From positions 1-15,587 of the forward strand of contig JAEOTO010000039.1 in the NCBI GenBank assembly GCA_016839805.1: a stretch of DNA of 15,587 nucleotides, in the 5' to 3' direction. A model generated the notes under the pieces. It was not told the DNA's origin, made no database searches, and was given only the letters and a program-made list of their open reading frames with translations. Numbering within the stretch: position 1 is the stretch's first letter; every line of letters begins with the position of its first letter. Of this stretch, positions 3,233 to 15,587 are shown piece after piece. Origin of the DNA: Candidatus Hermodarchaeota archaeon. GTDB taxonomy: Archaea; Asgardarchaeota; Hermodarchaeia; Hermodarchaeales; Hermodarchaeaceae. The position numbers were made by a program, and so were the translations under genes.

Positions 3233-4606
3233 TCATGCCACAAAATCAGTTAACCGGCGCTGATAGAGTTGACGGGCCAATAGACTTCCTCCATCTATCC
3301 AGGACTGCAAATTAATCCGGAACCCCGACATCATATACCGAATTGCCTCTTCCCGAGTATCAAACCGCAAATATGGTTGACGTAGAGCTTCACGGACAAT
3401 CTCACGACACTTCCACACACCAAGCGGCATGAGGTGGCTGGGTCGAGATTCACGAAGGACAACGACGGAGGCTTGGCGGCGTTCTTTAGCGAGGTGCTCT
3501 GTCGTCATAGCTCGGACAGCATAATAGCATCCACCAATGGATGCATAGGTTGTTCGACCTTTATGGGGTTCCCAGTCACTACAGATACCAACGTGCCTTC
3601 CAGACGGATTCCAAGAAGTTCCGGGGAACCAGGCTTCCACAAGTTCATAACTCCACGCTTCAGGGCTCATGAGAATTTTGAAGTGGTCTCCAAGGAAGTT
3701 ATGTTCATAAACTCGGTATTCGTTAATGAAAGAATGTTCTTTGACTTGGGCACGAAAGTGACGTCCAACAGTACTGTCGACTGCAGTAATACTCCACCGA
3801 GTAGGAACCATTCGCCGATTCCCTCCAATACCGAAGGAACCCATACTAAATGCTCGAGTAATCTTGGTGAGGTTTACATCATTGTTGTACAGGTCGACAA
3901 CTGCTGGAGCCGCTTTTAGATCTCGGTCCTCATACGCTCGTTCAAGTCGTTTATGCCCCTTCATGGTTCCTAAAACGAATTTGTCTAACATGGCTGAAGG
4001 GCCCATAGGTTGGACTTCTGAGTCAAGTCGGAGGGGGCGTCTGGGACGCTTCTTGAATAGAACCTCAGTTTCTACAGGACCTGAGGAAAGTGTCATGTCC
4101 CTTGTATCATCGATTATGCGACCAGATTGTTCGGGTTCATGTACACTGACTCGGTGCATACCGCGTACAAGGGAATAGCGATACTCCAAAATTTGGTTCA
4201 GGTCCAAATACATCCAATCTTCAGGTGAATCATAAATGGAAGTGTCCCCTATCACGGGTGGGACCAAGGGGCCAGCGTAGACTTTGGGCCATCCAAAGCG
4301 TCCAACGAAGACCCCTGGCGGTGATGATCCCTCAAGATCCGTTCTATCGAGGAGGGGTTTGACTTTCAAAAAAGAGTAAAGCCGGTGCAGGAGGGGGCAG
4401 GAAGATTTCCCGCAGAGCATCTTGCCACCCTTGCAGACAAGACATCGGGTCTGGCTGGAGGAAGGTGACAGTGTCTGCATGGTTACATCTAGGTCCTGGG
4501 CGGCTTCGACGCCATCCACCACAGGGGCTAGATAGGGTGCGACTTTGCGGACTTTCTTCACGAGCTTAACTCGTTTTGTTGAGCCTTTGCTCCTGAGTTG
4601 CCTCAC
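3233..4606 (-). CDS. nreA: Archaeal DNA repair protein Nre (NreA family, PCNA-interacting)
   Basis: Zn-finger-like CLVCKGGKMLCGKSSCP; GSSPPGVFVGRFGWPKV; RRMVPTRWSITAVD; GGCYYA; C-terminal PIP-like QRRLTDF. Start uncertain (GTG 4606). Confidence 0.92.
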   Translation of the reverse strand: MRQLRSKGSTKRVKLVKKVRKVAPYLAPVVDGVEAAQDLDVTMQTLSPSSSQTRCLVCKGGKMLCGKSSCPLLHRLYSFLKVKPLLDRTDLEGSSPPGVFVGRFGWPKVYAGPLVPPVIGDTSIYDSPEDWMYLDLNQILEYRYSLVRGMHRVSVHEPEQSGRIIDDTRDMTLSSGPVETEVLFKKRPRRPLRLDSEVQPMGPSAMLDKFVLGTMKGHKRLERAYEDRDLKAAPAVVDLYNNDVNLTKITRAFSMGSFGIGGNRRMVPTRWSITAVDSTVGRHFRAQVKEHSFINEYRVYEHNFLGDHFKILMSPEAWSYELVEAWFPGTSWNPSGRHVGICSDWEPHKGRTTYASIGGCYYAVRAMTTEHLAKERRQASVVVLRESRPSHLMPLGVWKCREIVREALRQPYLRFDTREEAIRYMMSGFRINLQSWIDGGSLLARQLYQRRLTDFVA

Positions 4607-5807: not shown

Positions 5808-7187
5808 TTACTGTTCTTGTTTATCATATTCCACTGTGCAAACTTCACAAGTCTTAGCCAATATGGGGGCTATCGCTGATTGGATAACCACAGTCATTAA
5901 AACGATGAGAAAAATGTAACCGGCAAGCTGGGGGTACACAAAGCCGTAGTTTAATGCCAGTGTCAGAGAAAAGAAGACTCCTGTAGCAGCGATGACGATT
6001 CCCCGCGGACCAAAGAAACTCATGAATATACGTTCACGAAATGTAAACTCCGTCCTGGCGGTTGACACTAACACAGCCAAAGGACGAATGACCAGAATAA
6101 GTAATCCCACAACAACCAACCCTGCCAGGAAGAATGGAGTGAAAAGCGTCACATAAAGCAGCTCCCAAGTAATGAAAGCGGTTAGTAGGAGAAAGACCGT
6201 GGCGATGGCTAACTGAACAAGATCCGACTGAAAAGTATGGACTCCCTCTTCGATGTGCTGCTTCATGTCATAGGATTCGTAGTCTTCCCAGTCCATTTCA
6301 GGTCCAATCCCAAATTTATCCCGATTCCCCAACATGATACCAGCAATCAACGCCGCAACGATTCCAGCATGGTGAGCAAAAGTTTCAGCAAGAGCAAAGG
6401 CAGCAAATGCTGCGATTAGCATACCAATGCGAGAGAGATGAGCAAGACTGTGGGTGTCAATTTGGTCTTTGTAATGAGAAATGAATCGTGGACCGACCCA
6501 TTGGGAAAGAAAAACGCCAATCCCTCCTACTACCAATCCGGCCAGGATTCCAATAAAGAGGTTAATAGACACGACAACGGGCAAGGCAATGGGCACGCCA
6601 GACAAAGAAGCTAAAATTGCAGTAAATATCGCTGAGGCTAGAATCACCCCTATTGCGTCATTAATTAACCCCTCTCCTTCCAGGGTGAATGCGACGTCTT
6701 CTTTAATTCCCAATCGACGAACAACGGGGTTGATGACTGTTGGTCCGGTAATCATGGTTAAGACTCCCATCAAAAAAGCAAAGGGTGGAATGATTACGGC
6801 AATGAACAAAAAGACGAGAGTCATGAGCACCGCCGTGATTAATCCGCCGATAAGTGATAAACGGAGGACATTCCCGATGAGTCGACGGAATTCTATAGGA
6901 GAGCACGCCTGTTCGTGTGGGAGGCAGCGGTTGAAACTGTAACCACCCTCAAAGACAATCACTGCGACCGCAACAGCTACAACTGCTTCAAGAAATTGCC
7001 CCTGATTGATTTGGAGAATATCAGGATTCAACAAGTTTAGGAATAAAGGGCCAATAATCAAACCGACAATAATATAGAAAATCAAGCGAGGTAATCGTGT
7101 GAGTTCGGAAAAAATGTGTGAAAGAAAAGTTGCACTAACCACTATTGCTGCAAAAATAACAATTAGAAGAGCGAAATCCAAAGCCAT
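5808..7187 (-). CDS. NhaP-type (CPA1) cation/H+ antiporter, paralog 1
   Basis: About 12-13 TM segments; VFEGG, TGPTVI, EGEGLINDA, FFGPRGIV. Confidence 0.9.
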   Translation of the reverse strand: MALDFALLIVIFAAIVVSATFLSHIFSELTRLPRLIFYIIVGLIIGPLFLNLLNPDILQINQGQFLEAVVAVAVAVIVFEGGYSFNRCLPHEQACSPIEFRRLIGNVLRLSLIGGLITAVLMTLVFLFIAVIIPPFAFLMGVLTMITGPTVINPVVRRLGIKEDVAFTLEGEGLINDAIGVILASAIFTAILASLSGVPIALPVVVSINLFIGILAGLVVGGIGVFLSQWVGPRFISHYKDQIDTHSLAHLSRIGMLIAAFAAFALAETFAHHAGIVAALIAGIMLGNRDKFGIGPEMDWEDYESYDMKQHIEEGVHTFQSDLVQLAIATVFLLLTAFITWELLYVTLFTPFFLAGLVVVGLLILVIRPLAVLVSTARTEFTFRERIFMSFFGPRGIVIAATGVFFSLTLALNYGFVYPQLAGYIFLIVLMTVVIQSAIAPILAKTCEVCTVEYDKQEQ

Positions 7188-7307
7188 TCTTACACCAATC
7201 TACAATTCTCTTTCTATATGTATGCTTTGTGAGTTATAATTTAAGGCACATAATTGTACTGTACTTGCTATCCTCTTGATTAGAGGAATTACTAAGCTCT
7301 TGTGTCA

Positions 7308-8705
7308 TTATTTTCCATTTTCAGATTTTTCTACACGCATCCGCTTAGCTAGAATTGGAGCTAAACCACCCTGAACTAAGACACTGACAAAGATTATGAT
7401 GAAAATGTAGAAGAGCAACAATTCTCCCCAAGCAATGTAATATCCTTCTAATATGAATTCTAGCGCAAAAGTAAAGCCAAGAGCTGCAATTATCACACCT
7501 CGTGGAGCAAAAAAACTCATGAAAGCTCGTTCACGCACGGAAAATCCGCTACGGATTGTCGCAATGAAGACACCAAAGGGACGTATGATTAAAATGAGGG
7601 CTATCACAAGAATAACTGCCACAAGTATCACATGAAGATTAATCACATGCAGGATTAAACCAAGATCAACAAAAGCGAGGGCAAGAATGAAAATAGTAGC
7701 GATTGCTATGTTCGTAAGAGGTAATTGAAATGAATGGATTTCTGCCTCTATTATTTCTGCCTCTTCTTTTTCCAGAGCTAGCTGAGAGCTATTGTTCTGG
7801 AAGCGATGACGCTGACCTAAAAGGATTCCTGCGGTGAGAGTGGAAATTATTGCCGCTTCTAACCCAATTAGGCTGCCAAGACCATATGCTATGAAGGCAA
7901 TGCACAGTAAACCCATCTGTTCTATGGCGGTCCAGATACTCGGGTTTAGTCGTGTCCCATAGTGTTTCATAATTTTGGGTTCGATATATTTTGTGAAACC
8001 GATGCCAAGTAAACCAATCCCCGACCCAGCTAAGAAACCCAAGCTGATCGCAATCAGAATCTGTAAGGGAATCAGAATTACTGCGCCTAATCCAGATAGT
8101 TCCAAAATAATTCCGCTAAAAATCGCTGCCGCTACAACTGCAAAAATCCCATCGTTAAACTCTCCCTCGCCCTGCATGGTTTCTGCTACTTCCTCCTCAA
8201 CCTGTAAATCGCGAAGGATTGGGTTAATGACTGTTGGACCGGTAATTGCACATAAAATGCCACCAAGAATTGCCAGCTCTAAAGGAAATCCTGCTAATAC
8301 AACGAAAAGGAACATCATAAATCCGGCTGTAATTAATCCAGTAATCATGACTAACCTCAAAATTTTAGGAAATAAGCGTCGAAATGGTAAGGGTTTACAA
8401 TCTTTCCGGTGATGACCGGTCTGTTTGTCTGTAATAATCTTAAAACACCGATTGAAACTGTATCCCCCTTCAAACACAATTAAGGCCAACGCCATGGCAA
8501 TAACCAAATCAAGAAGATCAATGTTCGGGATGAGGATACCCGGATGTAAGAAACCTACCCCTACTGGACCGATGAAAATTGCAAACAAGAGATAGAAGAC
8601 AATATTAGGAATCCGAGTGATACGGCTTAGAATCTCACTAGCCCATGCAACCAGCACGATAATGCCGGTAAGTAAAAGACCAAAGATCACGAACTCGGAC
8701 GACAA
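7308..8705 (-). CDS. NhaP-type (CPA1) cation/H+ antiporter, paralog 2
   Basis: VFEGG, TGPTVI, QGEGEFNDG, FFAPRGVI; collinear with the neighbouring paralog; TTG start. Confidence 0.9.
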   Translation of the reverse strand: MSSEFVIFGLLLTGIIVLVAWASEILSRITRIPNIVFYLLFAIFIGPVGVGFLHPGILIPNIDLLDLVIAMALALIVFEGGYSFNRCFKIITDKQTGHHRKDCKPLPFRRLFPKILRLVMITGLITAGFMMFLFVVLAGFPLELAILGGILCAITGPTVINPILRDLQVEEEVAETMQGEGEFNDGIFAVVAAAIFSGIILELSGLGAVILIPLQILIAISLGFLAGSGIGLLGIGFTKYIEPKIMKHYGTRLNPSIWTAIEQMGLLCIAFIAYGLGSLIGLEAAIISTLTAGILLGQRHRFQNNSSQLALEKEEAEIIEAEIHSFQLPLTNIAIATIFILALAFVDLGLILHVINLHVILVAVILVIALILIIRPFGVFIATIRSGFSVRERAFMSFFAPRGVIIAALGFTFALEFILEGYYIAWGELLLFYIFIIIFVSVLVQGGLAPILAKRMRVEKSENGK

Positions 8706-9167: not shown

Positions 9168-10145
9168 TCACTTAAGTGTTGATTTCAAGGCTTCAAGGAA
9201 CAGTTTGGGATCAAGTTGCCCTGCTGTATGGAATAGTCCCGTACGCAAATCATTGACGGTGATATGGGCGGGAGCAAAGAGCATTTTATCAATCTTGTAA
9301 AAGTCGCCTTCTGCATCCTTGAAGATTTGGTGAAAGGGTTTCCCATAATCCGATGACGTTGAGGATGGTACTTGCTTGATAAGATCTGCTAAACCGTCTT
9401 CTTCTGTTGATTGAATGAACAGGAAGGTTTCACCCATCATTAAAATCGCGTCATTAGTAATTCCCATAGCCCACATATCTTTACGTGCGACGGGAACAAT
9501 GGGGCATAAACCAATGCTACTCAGGACCTTTCGGAAATCATAACCCAGAATTTTGAGTTTGTGAATCCCCGTTTCTACAATTCGAGCTGCAATCTGTACG
9601 GAGCCCACAATACTGGCTGTTGGTGCTACGAGGAGATAGAGGTCTTTTTCTTCGATTTTACAAGCTTCAGCAACGTATTCACACACAGCAGGATTAGGTA
9701 GGGTCCGTGTTTCTAAAACCAGAATTGCTTCTTTGTGTTTGTCTTTATAGTTAAGCTTGTCATAGAGTTTTGTCTCGACTTGGGCTCGTGCCCGAGCGGG
9801 ACCAGAGCCGAGGGCAAAGAATCCCTCAACCTTAACATTCCATCCGGCTGCTTGGGATCCAATACATGCAAGGGGCGCATTATCACTGGTAACTCGTGCC
9901 ACTGGAAATGTGGAGCCACCCACAATATTCGTGTCGAGTGCAACAGTCCCTAGTCCACCCATACACACTTCTGCGACGAGGCGGCCCGCTTCAAGGCTTC
10001 CGGGAACATCAATCCCGCAATCGATAATTGTGGCTTTACCTTTGGTTTTGTGTACCTTCACACGAAGCATATCACTTTCAGTGATAAGACGCTCCACCTT
10101 GTGCATTGCTAGTTTGTTGACACTAGGTTGAGATTCATTCACCAT
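9168..10145 (-). CDS. mch: Methenyl-tetrahydromethanopterin cyclohydrolase
   Basis: SVNK..IDCG..GSLEAG..CMGGLG..ACIGSQAAGW..LGSGPARA..APTASIVGSVQIAARIVETGIHKL..DFYKIDKMLFAPA. True start ATG 10145 (MVNESQPSVN), overlapping the fwdC stop (10137-10135). The ORF-track extension to 10421 lies inside fwdC. Confidence 0.96.
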   Translation of the reverse strand: MVNESQPSVNKLAMHKVERLITESDMLRVKVHKTKGKATIIDCGIDVPGSLEAGRLVAEVCMGGLGTVALDTNIVGGSTFPVARVTSDNAPLACIGSQAAGWNVKVEGFFALGSGPARARAQVETKLYDKLNYKDKHKEAILVLETRTLPNPAVCEYVAEACKIEEKDLYLLVAPTASIVGSVQIAARIVETGIHKLKILGYDFRKVLSSIGLCPIVPVARKDMWAMGITNDAILMMGETFLFIQSTEEDGLADLIKQVPSSTSSDYGKPFHQIFKDAEGDFYKIDKMLFAPAHITVNDLRTGLFHTAGQLDPKLFLEALKSTLK

Positions 10146-11028
10146 TATTTCTAGCTCCCAGAATATGACCATTTTTTGGCTTGAATAGGAGTAATTCCCC
10201 TCGACCCCCCGAACCAAAATCGCCAGTAAATCGAAGATAAGGACCGACCCTTTCCTTTTCAGTGAATGTGACTCCTGGAATTTCTTTTTCAATTGCATCG
10301 AGGAGCAATCGCAGAAATAGCATTTCGGAATATTCACCGTTAAACAGATGCGTGGGTATAAGAGAATCTGCCTTGCCAAGGGCGATGATCGTGCCCTTAT
10401 AACGCATGGATGCACCCGCACGAGGACCTAGTTGACCCCGGACAATAATAGTTCCCGCAAGCATCCGTGTTCCAGTAAACGATTCTGTGTCTCCATCAAC
10501 AACAATAACCCCTCGGCGCATCCCCATACCCAGTTCATGACCAACGTTACCTGTAATGTAAAGGCTCCCTCCGTTCATGCCATAATTACTTCCCAGGTAA
10601 GCAGAAGCCGCTTTATCACCCACATTCCCTTTCACACGGATTGCTCCGCCAGACATTTCTGCTCCTAACCAGTGGTCGACATTGCCTTTGACTTCGATCG
10701 TCCCCCCTTTCATGCGTGCTCCTAGATGCATCCCTACATCTCCTTTTACCACGATTTTTCCCGTGGTCATATCTTGCCCAAAGTGGCGACATTGGTGGAT
10801 TTTACCTGATACTTCAATCGTTATTTTCTCAGCGGATTTATCACTCTTACCAGTCACTTCGAATAGTTTTCCAAGGGTGGTGCGTCGATTTCCGTGCCAA
10901 ACTTTCAGTTTGGATAATTTTTCAAGCGATTTTCCTGCCAGTGTATCTGGGGAGATGTTACTCAAATCTATGGGAATTCGCTCGCTAGAATCAAAGGTGG
11001 GGCGTAGTAAGATTTTGGAAGCAGTCAT
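10135..11028 (-). CDS. fwdC: Formylmethanofuran dehydrogenase subunit C (FwdC/FmdC)
   Basis: ISPD..VWHGNRRTTLGKLFEV followed by GXGXG beta-helix repeats (GDVGMHLGARMKGGTIEVKGN, GMNGGSLYITGN, MRRGVIVVDGD). Start reset to ATG 11028 (MTASKILL) because a TATAAAA lies about 30 nt upstream. Confidence 0.92.
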   Translation of the reverse strand: MTASKILLRPTFDSSERIPIDLSNISPDTLAGKSLEKLSKLKVWHGNRRTTLGKLFEVTGKSDKSAEKITIEVSGKIHQCRHFGQDMTTGKIVVKGDVGMHLGARMKGGTIEVKGNVDHWLGAEMSGGAIRVKGNVGDKAASAYLGSNYGMNGGSLYITGNVGHELGMGMRRGVIVVDGDTESFTGTRMLAGTIIVRGQLGPRAGASMRYKGTIIALGKADSLIPTHLFNGEYSEMLFLRLLLDAIEKEIPGVTFTEKERVGPYLRFTGDFGSGGRGELLLFKPKNGHILGARNNGE

Positions 11029-11159
11029 TTTACGGTAACTCCATTGTCGCTCATGTGCTTTTATAGGATATTCGCAAATTGTGGAACTAGCATAAACAGA
11101 TTTAGGTTGTACGGTAACGTTATTATTAATCATTACGACTCTGGTTCGAGGTTTAAGCA
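11029..11159. promoter_or_regulatory. Divergent promoter region for fwdC-mch and ftr
   Basis: Minus-strand TATAAAA (~11065-11058) about 30 nt before the fwdC ATG; plus-strand TTATTATTAAT (11120-11130) about 30 nt before the ftr ATG. Confidence 0.55.
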
Positions 11160-12056
11160 ATGGAACTGAATGGAATAGAAATCGAAGATACCTACGCTGA
11201 AGCCTTTGATATGCAAGTCGCTCGTATTCTCATGACGGCGGAAACCGCGAGTTGGGCTAAAACCTGCGCGCAATCTGCGGCTGGGTTTGCCACCTCCATC
11301 ATTGAATGCAAAGTTGAAGCAGGGATTGACAGATTCATTCCCAAAACCGAAACCCCCGATAAGCGTCCGGGTATAACATTACTCTTTGCTGCGTTGAAAT
11401 CCAAAGATCTAGCAAAACAGCTGCGTAAGCGTACAGGGCAATGTATCTTGACCTGTCCCACCTCAGCTGTGTTCAATGCTTTAGATAATGCTGAAGAATG
11501 GGTGGATGTTGGAGACCAACTTCGGTATTTCGGAGATGGATTTGAAGACCGTAAACGGATTGGAGATAAACTCCTGTTATGGCGGATCCCTGTCATCGAA
11601 GGTGAATTCGTCATTGAAGAGAAATTCGGAATCAAAAAGGGTGTTGGAGGTGGGAACCTTATCCTCATGGGTAAGACCCAGAAGTCAACGCTTAAGGCTA
11701 CAGAAGCAGCGGTAAATGCAATCTATGAAGTTGATGGATGTGTCGCCCCCTTTCCGGGTGGCATATGTCGTAGTGGAAGTCAAGTGGGTTCGAAATACGA
11801 TTTCCTTAAGGCTTCTACTAATGTGAAGCTTTGCCCTACTCTTCGTGAACAGATTCCTGACTCGCTAGTTCCACCCAATGTCAACAGTGTTCTCGAAATT
11901 GTACTCAATGGTATGAGCAAAAACGCGGTTCAAGATGGTATGCGTGCTGCGTTACATGCAGCAGCTAAAGTTCCTGGACTTGTTCGTGTTACCGCTGCCA
12001 ATTTTGGCGGAAAACTTGGTCAACATAAACTGCACCTTAAAGCGATTATAGACTAA
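11160..12056 (+). CDS. ftr: Formylmethanofuran--tetrahydromethanopterin N-formyltransferase
   Basis: MELNGIEIEDTYAEAF..GFATSII.C..EAGID..TPDKRPG..RTGQCILTCPT..GVGGGN..PFPGGICRSGSQVGS..ASTN..ANFGGKLG. Confidence 0.97.
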   Translation: MELNGIEIEDTYAEAFDMQVARILMTAETASWAKTCAQSAAGFATSIIECKVEAGIDRFIPKTETPDKRPGITLLFAALKSKDLAKQLRKRTGQCILTCPTSAVFNALDNAEEWVDVGDQLRYFGDGFEDRKRIGDKLLLWRIPVIEGEFVIEEKFGIKKGVGGGNLILMGKTQKSTLKATEAAVNAIYEVDGCVAPFPGGICRSGSQVGSKYDFLKASTNVKLCPTLREQIPDSLVPPNVNSVLEIVLNGMSKNAVQDGMRAALHAAAKVPGLVRVTAANFGGKLGQHKLHLKAIID

Positions 12057-14070: not shown

Positions 14071-14214
14071 CTAGGACACGTATTTCTCTGGATTCTTGTC
14101 AAACTCAGCTTTACAGCCAGGGGCACAGAAATAATACATCTTGCCTTTGTAAATCGATTTCCACTTCGCTGTTTTTTCATCAACTTTCATCTTACAGATG
14201 GGATCAATTGCCAT
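14071..14214 (-). CDS. Small YHS/TRASH-domain protein (47 aa), putative copper chaperone
   Basis: Not in the ORF track (too short). Hand translation: MAIDPICKMKVDEKTAKWKSIYKGKMYYFCAPGCKAEFDKNPEKYVS*, a canonical DPxCxM..Y.GK.YYFC...C..F..NP.KY pattern. SD AGGAG at 14228-14224. Confidence 0.95.
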   Translation of the reverse strand: MAIDPICKMKVDEKTAKWKSIYKGKMYYFCAPGCKAEFDKNPEKYVS

Positions 14215-14350
14215 ATCGTCCGTCTCCTATTTCGTTGGTTGAATATACATAAATAACTTATATAACTCGCTGGTGTTACTATCCACTCAGATATATCCAA
14301 TATGTTATGTTTAAAAGAATTACTGTCTTCTCTATCATTAACATAAAATT
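14215..14350. promoter_or_regulatory. Divergent promoter region between the YHS gene and the regulator-copA unit
   Basis: AT-rich. Palindromic TTATATAA at 14258-14265 suits the YHS gene; TTTAAAA at ~14310-14317 suits the plus-strand gene. Confidence 0.5.
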
Positions 14351-15412
14351 ATGATACCAATTCGGGATGTGAGAAATATAACAAAAATCGCAACAGAACT
14401 AACAAAAATTTGGGAAACAGTTCAAGCAAATATGCAATACTACGAAAATAGCGAAGAGGCCGTGAAATCCCAAATTATAATTCCTATCTTAAAGACTCTA
14501 GGTTGGAAAACACTTGATCCTTCAGAAGTGCAACATGGTTATCTTACCAGCGAAGGCATTCCAGATATTACTTTAACTATTAATGGTAAACCAAAATTAA
14601 TCATCGAGGTTAAAAAGCTTGGAATCGATATCTCACAGCTTGAACAATTAAATAAACTATCAAGATATTGCACTAGCGAGGGTGTGAAATACGGAGTTAT
14701 AACAGATGGCAGACACTGGATTCTAATTCAGGCTTTCAGAGAAGGTGTAAAGTTAGCTGACAGAAATCTTTGGAAAATTGATCTATGTGATTTGAAACTT
14801 CCGAAAACAATCCAATTTCTTCAGGTAATATCAAGAGAAAAGATACTGAATATTGAATCCAAACTTATTGCGGGATCGTTTCCTCATCAAACTAAATCTG
14901 ATAAAATCACTGAATCATTAGATGAAATTAAAGAAGAGATAGGTAAGAATGGAATTTTCTCAGAAAAGACTTCCTTGGGCGTTCCATTTGATGATTTTGC
15001 GAAGGTTTACATTTTATTACTCCTTTACGAAAGCCCTTCTCATGGCTATGGTTTAATGACAAAATATCGAAACCGAACTGGTCGTACTTTAAGTGCAGGT
15101 ACTCTATACCCATTTCTTGAATATTTGGAAGAACATGGATTTGTCTCATCGAAAAGCAATCCAACAGGAAAACGACCAAGACGAGTGGTTAGTTTTACCG
15201 AGAAAGGTCGAAAGGGAGCAGAGCTTCTCTTCTCAAGATTTGCTTCAATCACGGCTGCGGTTTTTGAATCTAACCTACAAGTGTGTGCAAGTTGTGGCTG
15301 TAAAGTCTATGAGGGTGCACACTTCGAAGAGGTCAATAGTAAAAAATTGGCCTTTTGCTGCCACCATTGTGCGACTGCGTATAAAACGCAGCTTCAGGAG
15401 AATATTAGTTAA
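14351..15412 (+). CDS. Fusion protein: HsdR_N-like PD-(D/E)xK nuclease domain + PadR wHTH + TRASH metal-binding domain
   Basis: aa ~33-165: NSEEAVKSQIIIPILKTLGW..EV..PD72..IIE86VK88..Y..GVKYGVITDGRHW. aa ~215-298: ILLLLYESPSHGYGL..LSAGTLYPFLEYLEEHGFV..RPRRVVSFTEKG. aa 312-340: CASCGC-..-LAFCCHHC. One open frame with no internal stop. Confidence 0.88.
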   Translation: MIPIRDVRNITKIATELTKIWETVQANMQYYENSEEAVKSQIIIPILKTLGWKTLDPSEVQHGYLTSEGIPDITLTINGKPKLIIEVKKLGIDISQLEQLNKLSRYCTSEGVKYGVITDGRHWILIQAFREGVKLADRNLWKIDLCDLKLPKTIQFLQVISREKILNIESKLIAGSFPHQTKSDKITESLDEIKEEIGKNGIFSEKTSLGVPFDDFAKVYILLLLYESPSHGYGLMTKYRNRTGRTLSAGTLYPFLEYLEEHGFVSSKSNPTGKRPRRVVSFTEKGRKGAELLFSRFASITAAVFESNLQVCASCGCKVYEGAHFEEVNSKKLAFCCHHCATAYKTQLQENIS

Positions 15413-15436: not shown

Positions 15437-15587
15437 TTGAACGAAACTAATGGTAATGATCAGAAAACGCAACGACTTTCTATGCGGATTGAAGGCATGC
15501 ATTGTGCAGCCTGTGTGGCAACAATTGAAAAAGCACTTGTACAAAATCAAGGTGTGGCCAAAGCTTCAGTAAATCTGTTAGAAGAGA
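15437..15587 (+). CDS. HMA-domain protein, N-terminus of a probable CopA-type P1B ATPase (or a stand-alone CopZ); runs off the window
   Basis: Not in the ORF track. TTG 15437 follows GGTGA (15426-15430) and an in-frame TGA (15431-15433). Translation MNETNGNDQKTQRLSMRIEGMHCAACVATIEKALVQNQGVAKASVNLLEE contains GMxCxxC. Confidence 0.88.
   Translation, partial: MNETNGNDQKTQRLSMRIEGMHCAACVATIEKALVQNQGVAKASVNLLEE

Follow-up and report, generated by a model that had tools for sequence, protein, structure and literature searches.

CopR of Pyrococcus furiosus is an octameric, TRASH-containing regulator of the Lrp/AsnC family (PMC7830388). Here we describe an Asgard archaeal gene that resembles archaeal CopR and CopT in its C-terminal TRASH sensor, its position beside copA and a small metal chaperone gene, and its divergent promoter region, but that differs from CopR in having a PadR winged helix-turn-helix (wHTH), a 7-6-7 palindrome, and an extra N-terminal domain of nuclease fold. 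Its direct orthologues are stand-alone Asgard PadR-TRASH proteins, which likewise lie between YHS and copA genes and share its invariant cysteines, but which lack the nuclease domain, usually have a perfect operator, and carry a wHTH only 55–62% identical to the fused one. The N-terminal domain shares its fold (Z 10–13) and motif order (I-II-III-QxxxY) with type I HsdR subunits (EcoR124I, EcoAI-like) and type IIG/IIL enzymes (BpuSI, DrdV); unlike these, the fused protein has no helicase, methyltransferase or specificity subunit, and KxxxY (K102-x3-Y106) replaces QxxxY. In EcoR124I HsdR, the same Gln-to-Lys change (Q179K) abolished cleavage under any condition and left binding and translocation nearly normal (PMC2475608).

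Two more distant parallels are relevant. As in homing endonuclease elements, unfused alleles have been replaced along a conversion-like tract, but there is neither an intein nor an intron, and targeting would have to come from a host transcription factor. As in RecC, a dead PD-(D/E)xK fold may have been retained for a new role, although RecC is a repair subunit rather than a regulator (PMC1185551). The fused gene is neither a member of a type I restriction-modification system nor an Lrp-type CopR, although its likely regulatory role is CopR-like. At a probability of roughly one half, we read its product as a copper-sensing repressor of copA and the YHS gene that carries a pseudo-nuclease accessory domain.

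A Nuclease-Fold Domain and a Metal-Sensor Regulator Share One Reading Frame

The window is a whole 15,587-nt contig (C30) from the 2.3-Mb genome (G000) of an Asgard archaeon in the genus of Ca. Hermodarchaeum. A 353-codon ORF on its plus strand (14351–15412, 353 aa, no internal stop) joins an HsdR_N-type PD-(D/E)xK domain to a PadR-TRASH regulator (Table 1). The first-pass annotation had proposed this three-domain architecture, and it is borne out by Pfam matches above cutoff for HSDR_N (residues 68–127, 45.1 bits vs. 25.1) and PadR (residues 221–288, curated cutoff 27), as well as by the presence of every motif residue that had been named (E35, D72, E86, K88, KLSRY and C312/C315/C336/C337/C340); TRASH-type matches at residues 312–348 are weak and fall under the cutoff. 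An AlphaFold model of residues 10–175 (pLDDT 94.8) has its best structural matches in the nuclease domains of BpuSI (Z-score 13.4), Vibrio HsdR (12.6), DrdV (12.0) and EcoR124I HsdR (10.4), with which Foldseek agrees, while a full-length model built from six sequences was poor (pLDDT 51). The N terminus of the ancestral regulator, MSEK, aligns with F204-S-E-K of the fused protein. PADLOC and NCBIfam returned no system-level match for the fused gene, and a search of the ESM Atlas gave only low-score HSDR_N leads.

Table 1. Features of the fused gene and its surroundings (window coordinates)
Feature	Position	Strand	Remarks
YHS-domain small protein, 47 aa, probable copper chaperone	14071..14214	-	Pfam YHS E 5e-18; divergent from regulator
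Laterally exchanged block: divergent promoter, nuclease, linker and wHTH	14215..15260	.	54–63% identical to G013 in homologous parts vs. 75–92% to L062
Degenerate operator array	14277..14310	.	Intact central 8-bp palindrome at 14290–14297
Probable true translation start	14364..14380	+	Shine-Dalgarno-like GGGATGTGA, then ATA (Ile10); GTG 14369 is an alternative
HsdR_N-type PD-(D/E)xK domain (residues 10–170)	14378..14860	+	E35, D72, E86, K88 and Y106 kept; Gln of QxxxY replaced by Lys102 (codon 14654–14656)
Linker (residues 171–203)	14861..14959	+	Fast-evolving, in frame; dN/dS 0.2–0.8, near-saturated between clades
PadR winged helix-turn-helix (residues 212–293)	14984..15229	+	Pfam PadR 52.5 bits; orthologue of stand-alone regulators
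TRASH metal-binding domain, C312-x2-C315-x20-C336-C337-x2-C340	15284..15370	+	Cys invariant in aligned fused and unfused regulators; Pfam TRASH-type matches weak
copA 5′ end (HMA domain of P1B ATPase)	15437..15587	+	Pfam HMA; cut by contig end

The Fusion Arose Once within the Hermodarchaeum Group

Stand-alone PadR-TRASH proteins of ~150 aa occur in 88/251 Asgard genomes, are nearly always unfused, and in most of the family's genomes are located between the YHS gene and copA. Among the same 251 genomes, the 356-codon fused frame is found only in G000 and G006; a further locus, in G005, is cut by contig ends, and the same nuclease begins there after YHS. Including the query there are six full-length fused proteins. 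The other five, at 49–82% identity, come from independent samples and rule out both an assembly chimera and a singleton fusion, the latter having been named beforehand as a result that would count against the architecture; each of their genes immediately precedes a long gene, which carries a CopA annotation wherever it is complete. Read support for the junction had also been marked for checking; a Logan contig from what is probably the source run, not independent of the assembly, crosses it without a difference. Of the fused relatives that have a name, Ca. Hermodarchaeum yapensis, an Asgard archaeon in the same genus as G000, is the nearest.

The fused genes group together in a single clade (support 97/93 in the regulator tree and 97 in the nuclease tree), which splits into clade I (G000, G006, P0002 and P0004) and clade II (P0005 and P0006). 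A DNA-level wHTH tree flags the join of the two clades as the meeting of two long branches, and we base this join on the shared architecture together with the nuclease tree. A single fusion event, in an ancestor inside the Hermodarchaeum group, accounts for all the fused genes. A literature search (TRASH with PadR, copper in Hermodarchaeia, and HSDR_N regulator fusions), which took in a minority of subscription papers, found no description of the fusion, in keeping with the earlier suggestion that the architecture is undescribed.

The nuclease domain derives from a family of stand-alone HsdR_N proteins of roughly 330–370 aa. An exhaustive profile search (hits down to E 5e-43) recovered a large family of proteins, mostly 300–380 aa long, with the same N-terminal domain and variable C termini, a few of which match SeqA_C, RAMA, DUF4268 or Mrr_N. 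We take these C termini to be DNA-reader domains, and the proteins to be type IV-like stand-alone restriction nucleases. Members are up to 41% identical to the fused N-terminal domain and share its start register, and the fused clade nests inside the family; in the fused proteins, by contrast, a metal-sensing regulator stands in place of the reader, and either the Gln of QxxxY or the Asp of the PD motif is lost. The host genome holds no other member of this nuclease family, and the nearest stand-alone nucleases are mostly found on short contigs. Elsewhere in the family, four stand-alone members (P0080, P0110, P0119 and P0132) have each lost three to five active-site residues, and pseudo-nucleases therefore recur within it. 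In a likely defence island (G030:C4, L060, 1202–7253), an intact stand-alone HsdR_N plus SeqA-like protein is encoded with a probable PLD-type nuclease gene on one side and a probable type IIG restriction-modification gene on the other.

Comparison with the parent family also bears on where translation begins. The first-pass annotation had the frame right, but its start, ATG 14351, is absent in relatives, and ATA 14378 or GTG 14369 is more likely the true start. Counted from 14378, the invariant Trp is residue 43, which is also the family mode (36/110) and the value in P0005. Three observations indicate that the nuclease gene probably came in with its own start: Met1 of the stand-alone nucleases most often falls at Ile10 of the query (where clade II starts too), ATG 14351 lacks conservation, and a Shine-Dalgarno-like stretch precedes ATA 14378 by 5 nt. 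An arrangement as two genes with an internal start at TTG 14975, also raised earlier, is unlikely: this codon is CTG in P0004 and absent in clade II, and no GTGA-type site lies upstream of it. A different TTG, aligned in register with the start of the ancestral regulator, is present in clade II, and a short regulator form may possibly be made from it; the ancestral start position in clade I reads TTC, ATA or similar.

Active-Site Residues Are Lost in a Domain under Purifying Selection

Residues E35, D72, E86, K88, Q102 and Y106 are each 95–98% conserved across 110 stand-alone members, and all six are kept in 101/110 of these vs. 0/6 fused proteins. All four clade I proteins carry Q102K with E35, the PD-ExK triad and Y106 intact, whereas the two clade II proteins carry D72L or D72A, and one of them also Y106H; the six fused sequences represent only two independent active-site events. 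Gln is found at position 102 in 107/110 stand-alone relatives (97%) and Lys in two. An intact triad with degenerate accessory motifs, as first described for the window's protein, holds for the triad of clade I and fails for that of clade II, where the Asp is lost, and the supposedly accessory Gln is among the conserved residues of the parent family. The Q-to-K result comes from EcoR124I only; by analogy it may carry over to the fused family, but residual, altered or weak nicking activity is possible in clade I, because its triad is intact.

The nuclease part is under purifying selection. Its dN/dS is 0.10–0.15 within clade I (dS 0.5–1.0) and 0.23 within clade II, compared with 0.07–0.11 for CopA and the adjacent kinase, which rules out the neutral decay that the first-pass annotation had put forward as a possible refutation. 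Ten checked structural positions are kept in 6/6 fused proteins. The linker is near-neutral by dN/dS yet always in frame; a stop-codon simulation of the linker was weak (27–60% of neutral end states were stop-free) and was not used.

These patterns could also arise if the nuclease gene simply landed in frame, the regulator lost its own start, and a functionless domain then rode on a favourable promoter/wHTH allele, being kept only since stops or misfolding would ruin the regulator. We consider this unlikely. The loss of different catalytic residues in each lineage, the replacement of the ancestral start codon in clade I, the near-neutral linker, and the better conservation of structural residues are what it would predict. 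However, at ~0.1 the dN/dS is the same as for functional neighbouring genes, in-frame deletions of the domain are not seen despite ~50% protein divergence, and the block has displaced working unfused alleles at least twice (see below).

Less probable still is the proposal, made from the sequence at first reading, of an active nuclease under copper control via TRASH and targeted by the wHTH, which under copper stress would act in defence, dormancy or DNA processing. In its favour, clade I has an intact triad under purifying selection, and the parent family resembles stand-alone restriction nucleases, one of which adjoins a TIR/Cap12-like gene. Against this, the clade I substitution matches one that kills EcoR124I cleavage (PMC2475608), clade II has kept the domain without the catalytic Asp72, the setting is a housekeeping copper divergon, the predicted wHTH target is the promoter of the cell's own copA, and PADLOC gave weak partial matches only. 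The second option offered at that stage, a nuclease fold co-opted for a noncutting role, fits best: active-site residues are lost in both clades and the domain is retained.

The Fused Gene Lies in a Copper-Export Divergon with a Predicted Operator

The copper-export context recognised in the first-pass annotation is confirmed and extended. The HMA ORF begins 24 nt after the stop of the fused gene, and its frame runs on, through an overlap, into contig C23, where it encodes a complete CopA-type P1B ATPase, 77% identical to a relative's 889-aa CopA with a CPC motif. The divergent YHS gene holds the same position in fused and unfused relatives. The fused protein is the sole TRASH protein of its Cys pattern in its genome. 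No SF2 helicase, hsdM or hsdS is present in the fused protein or the window, nor at the relatives' loci, and no defence genes are present at the locus.

Eight genomes have a perfect ATATATC-N6-GATATAT palindrome ahead of the unfused regulator gene, three have one ahead of copB, and controls gave 0 hits; this pattern lends comparative support to a predicted copper regulon. In the window, one site (14291–14310) has two mismatches to this palindrome and an overlapping one (14277–14296) has three. The perfect operator is absent from the three clade I genomes searched and present in one to three copies in nine other genomes of the genus; copB of G005 has only a three-mismatch site. Imperfect operators are seen, too, in three unfused genomes (G007, G015 and G018). 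Since clade II keeps a perfect operator, fusion does not generally lead to operator decay.

Several further loci contain parts of this candidate regulon. In G013, G001 and G008 (L162–L164), a copB island, which encodes a His-rich P1B ATPase with a CPH motif and a small divergent membrane gene, bears perfect or tandem cop operators; the island is absent at the matching site in G000, so that the lack of second operator sites in G000 is uninformative. On G014:C39 (L058), two PadR-TRASH paralogues (450–923 and 6352–6822), each with an operator-like sequence upstream, flank copA and a Lon-like AAA gene; identity does not support the origin of the fused wHTH from a G014 paralogue. A perfect operator on G014:C47 (L165, 2265–2284) precedes an ABC transporter permease/ATPase pair, possibly a further regulon member, and on G011:C51 (L166, 2267–2318) copA comes straight after a kinase gene, with neither YHS nor a regulator at the locus. 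A widespread PadR-TRASH copper regulon in Asgard archaea is apparently undescribed, and no paper on the stand-alone Asgard PadR-TRASH regulator was found in the literature searched.

The Fused Allele Is a Mosaic That Has Moved between Species

The sister species of G000, as judged by rpoB/rpoA DNA (93% for G013; 72–80% for others), has an unfused regulator at this locus. Identity between the two is 93% in the YHS gene, which forms the left homology arm, 88% in TRASH and 93% in copA, but only 54–63% in the promoter and wHTH that lie between. Conversely, the nuclease and wHTH of the window are 88–92% identical to those on the contig of P0002, the flanks of which are at 71–80%; its backbone is given no firm placement by the tree. 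Unfused alleles have been laterally replaced together with a flanking tract, and the ends of the mosaic are sharp: informative sites flip at 15259/15262 (96:13 vs. 8:67), and the drop against G013 is already over near 15238. A Fisher P value for the switch at ~15260 is overstated, as the breakpoint was chosen post hoc.

Because the ~1-kb block is far closer to that of a distant lineage than to the unfused allele of the sister species, it has spread between species by recombination. The clade I block is 80–92% identical across backbones that are only 72–74% identical, and it occupies at least three backbones, implying at least two transfers; two of these backbones are nearest to unfused relatives, and the transfers apparently went onto unfused backgrounds. 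Such replacement is not routine, since 0/227 syntenic G000/G013 orthologues fall below 70% identity; two contain an 80-aa window at ≤62%.

The unusual replacement raises the possibility of a homing-like selfish cassette, in which the restriction-nuclease domain has hijacked a copper-sensing transcription factor as its guide. The clade I protein, as a weak nuclease or nickase steered by the PadR wHTH, would nick unfused alleles at their perfect cop operator; repair templated by the fused copy would transfer the block, its own degenerate operator being protected, and the cassette would drive itself through Hermodarchaeum, with clade II as a dead end-state. Along with the mosaic itself, this scenario would account for the inclusion of the operator in the exchanged tract, the absence of perfect operators from the clade I genomes searched, the three-mismatch copB site of G005, and the perfect operator of Asp-less clade II. 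A LAGLIDADG intein on the same contig shows that homing elements exist in this host. Nevertheless we regard the scenario as improbable. All spreading copies carry Q102K, the counterpart of which abolishes cleavage in EcoR124I, and no self-splicing element is involved. The ends of the tract are explained simply by where homology resumes, the pairing of an intact triad with a degenerate operator and of a dead site with a perfect one is a single two-clade contrast, imperfect operators also occur in unfused genomes, and missing second sites carry no information in a genome without the copB island. If the scenario were true, the fused gene would be a homing element that lacks both intron and intein, relies on a host regulator for targeting and is possibly copper-gated; should the clade I protein still nick, it would represent a new type of homing element.

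A Possible Route from Restriction Nuclease to Regulatory Accessory Domain

A copper-sensing repressor with a pseudo-nuclease accessory domain, the reading we prefer, could have arisen and could act as follows. The N-terminal domain of a stand-alone nuclease was fused once to the YHS/copA regulator; entering downstream of the cop operator, the nuclease gene probably brought its own start, and PadR-TRASH took the place of its presumed C-terminal DNA-reader domain. A PadR dimer would bind the ATATATC-N6-GATATAT-type operator between the genes and repress them, and Cu(I) on the TRASH cysteines would release or remodel the regulator, allowing expression of copA and the YHS chaperone. The nuclease domain probably no longer cuts efficiently and would be kept folded as an accessory module, which most likely adds nonspecific DNA contacts beside the operator and may permit a degenerate operator. 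The block of promoter, nuclease and wHTH has replaced the unfused allele in other species by homologous recombination via YHS and the TRASH/copA arm, and some advantage presumably lies behind its spread.

The locus appears to catch a defence-type nuclease domain entering a housekeeping metal sensor, with one fusion, two active-site losses, purifying selection, and lateral spread between Asgard species that differ by ~20% in DNA. With fused and unfused alleles occurring naturally, two versions disabled in different ways, and an operator prediction, the system offers ready pairs for studying the origin of pseudo-enzymes in regulators.

The rest of the contig holds genes of other kinds. A radical-SAM-like gene that runs off the contig end (3–1661, minus strand) is interrupted by the LAGLIDADG intein, identified by Pfam LAGLIDADG_3 and Intein_splicing and inserted immediately ahead of the third Cys in the gene's CxxxCxxC motif. 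A cluster of methanopterin C1 genes at 9168–12056 comprises mch, a GXGXG FwdC-like gene and ftr, in the same order as in relatives. Two tandem, similar genes with 12–13 transmembrane segments lie at 5808–8705 (minus strand), the first of which matches a Na+/H+ exchanger family, and an archaeal Nre DNA-repair protein (Nre_N, Nre_C) is encoded at 3233–4606 (minus strand).
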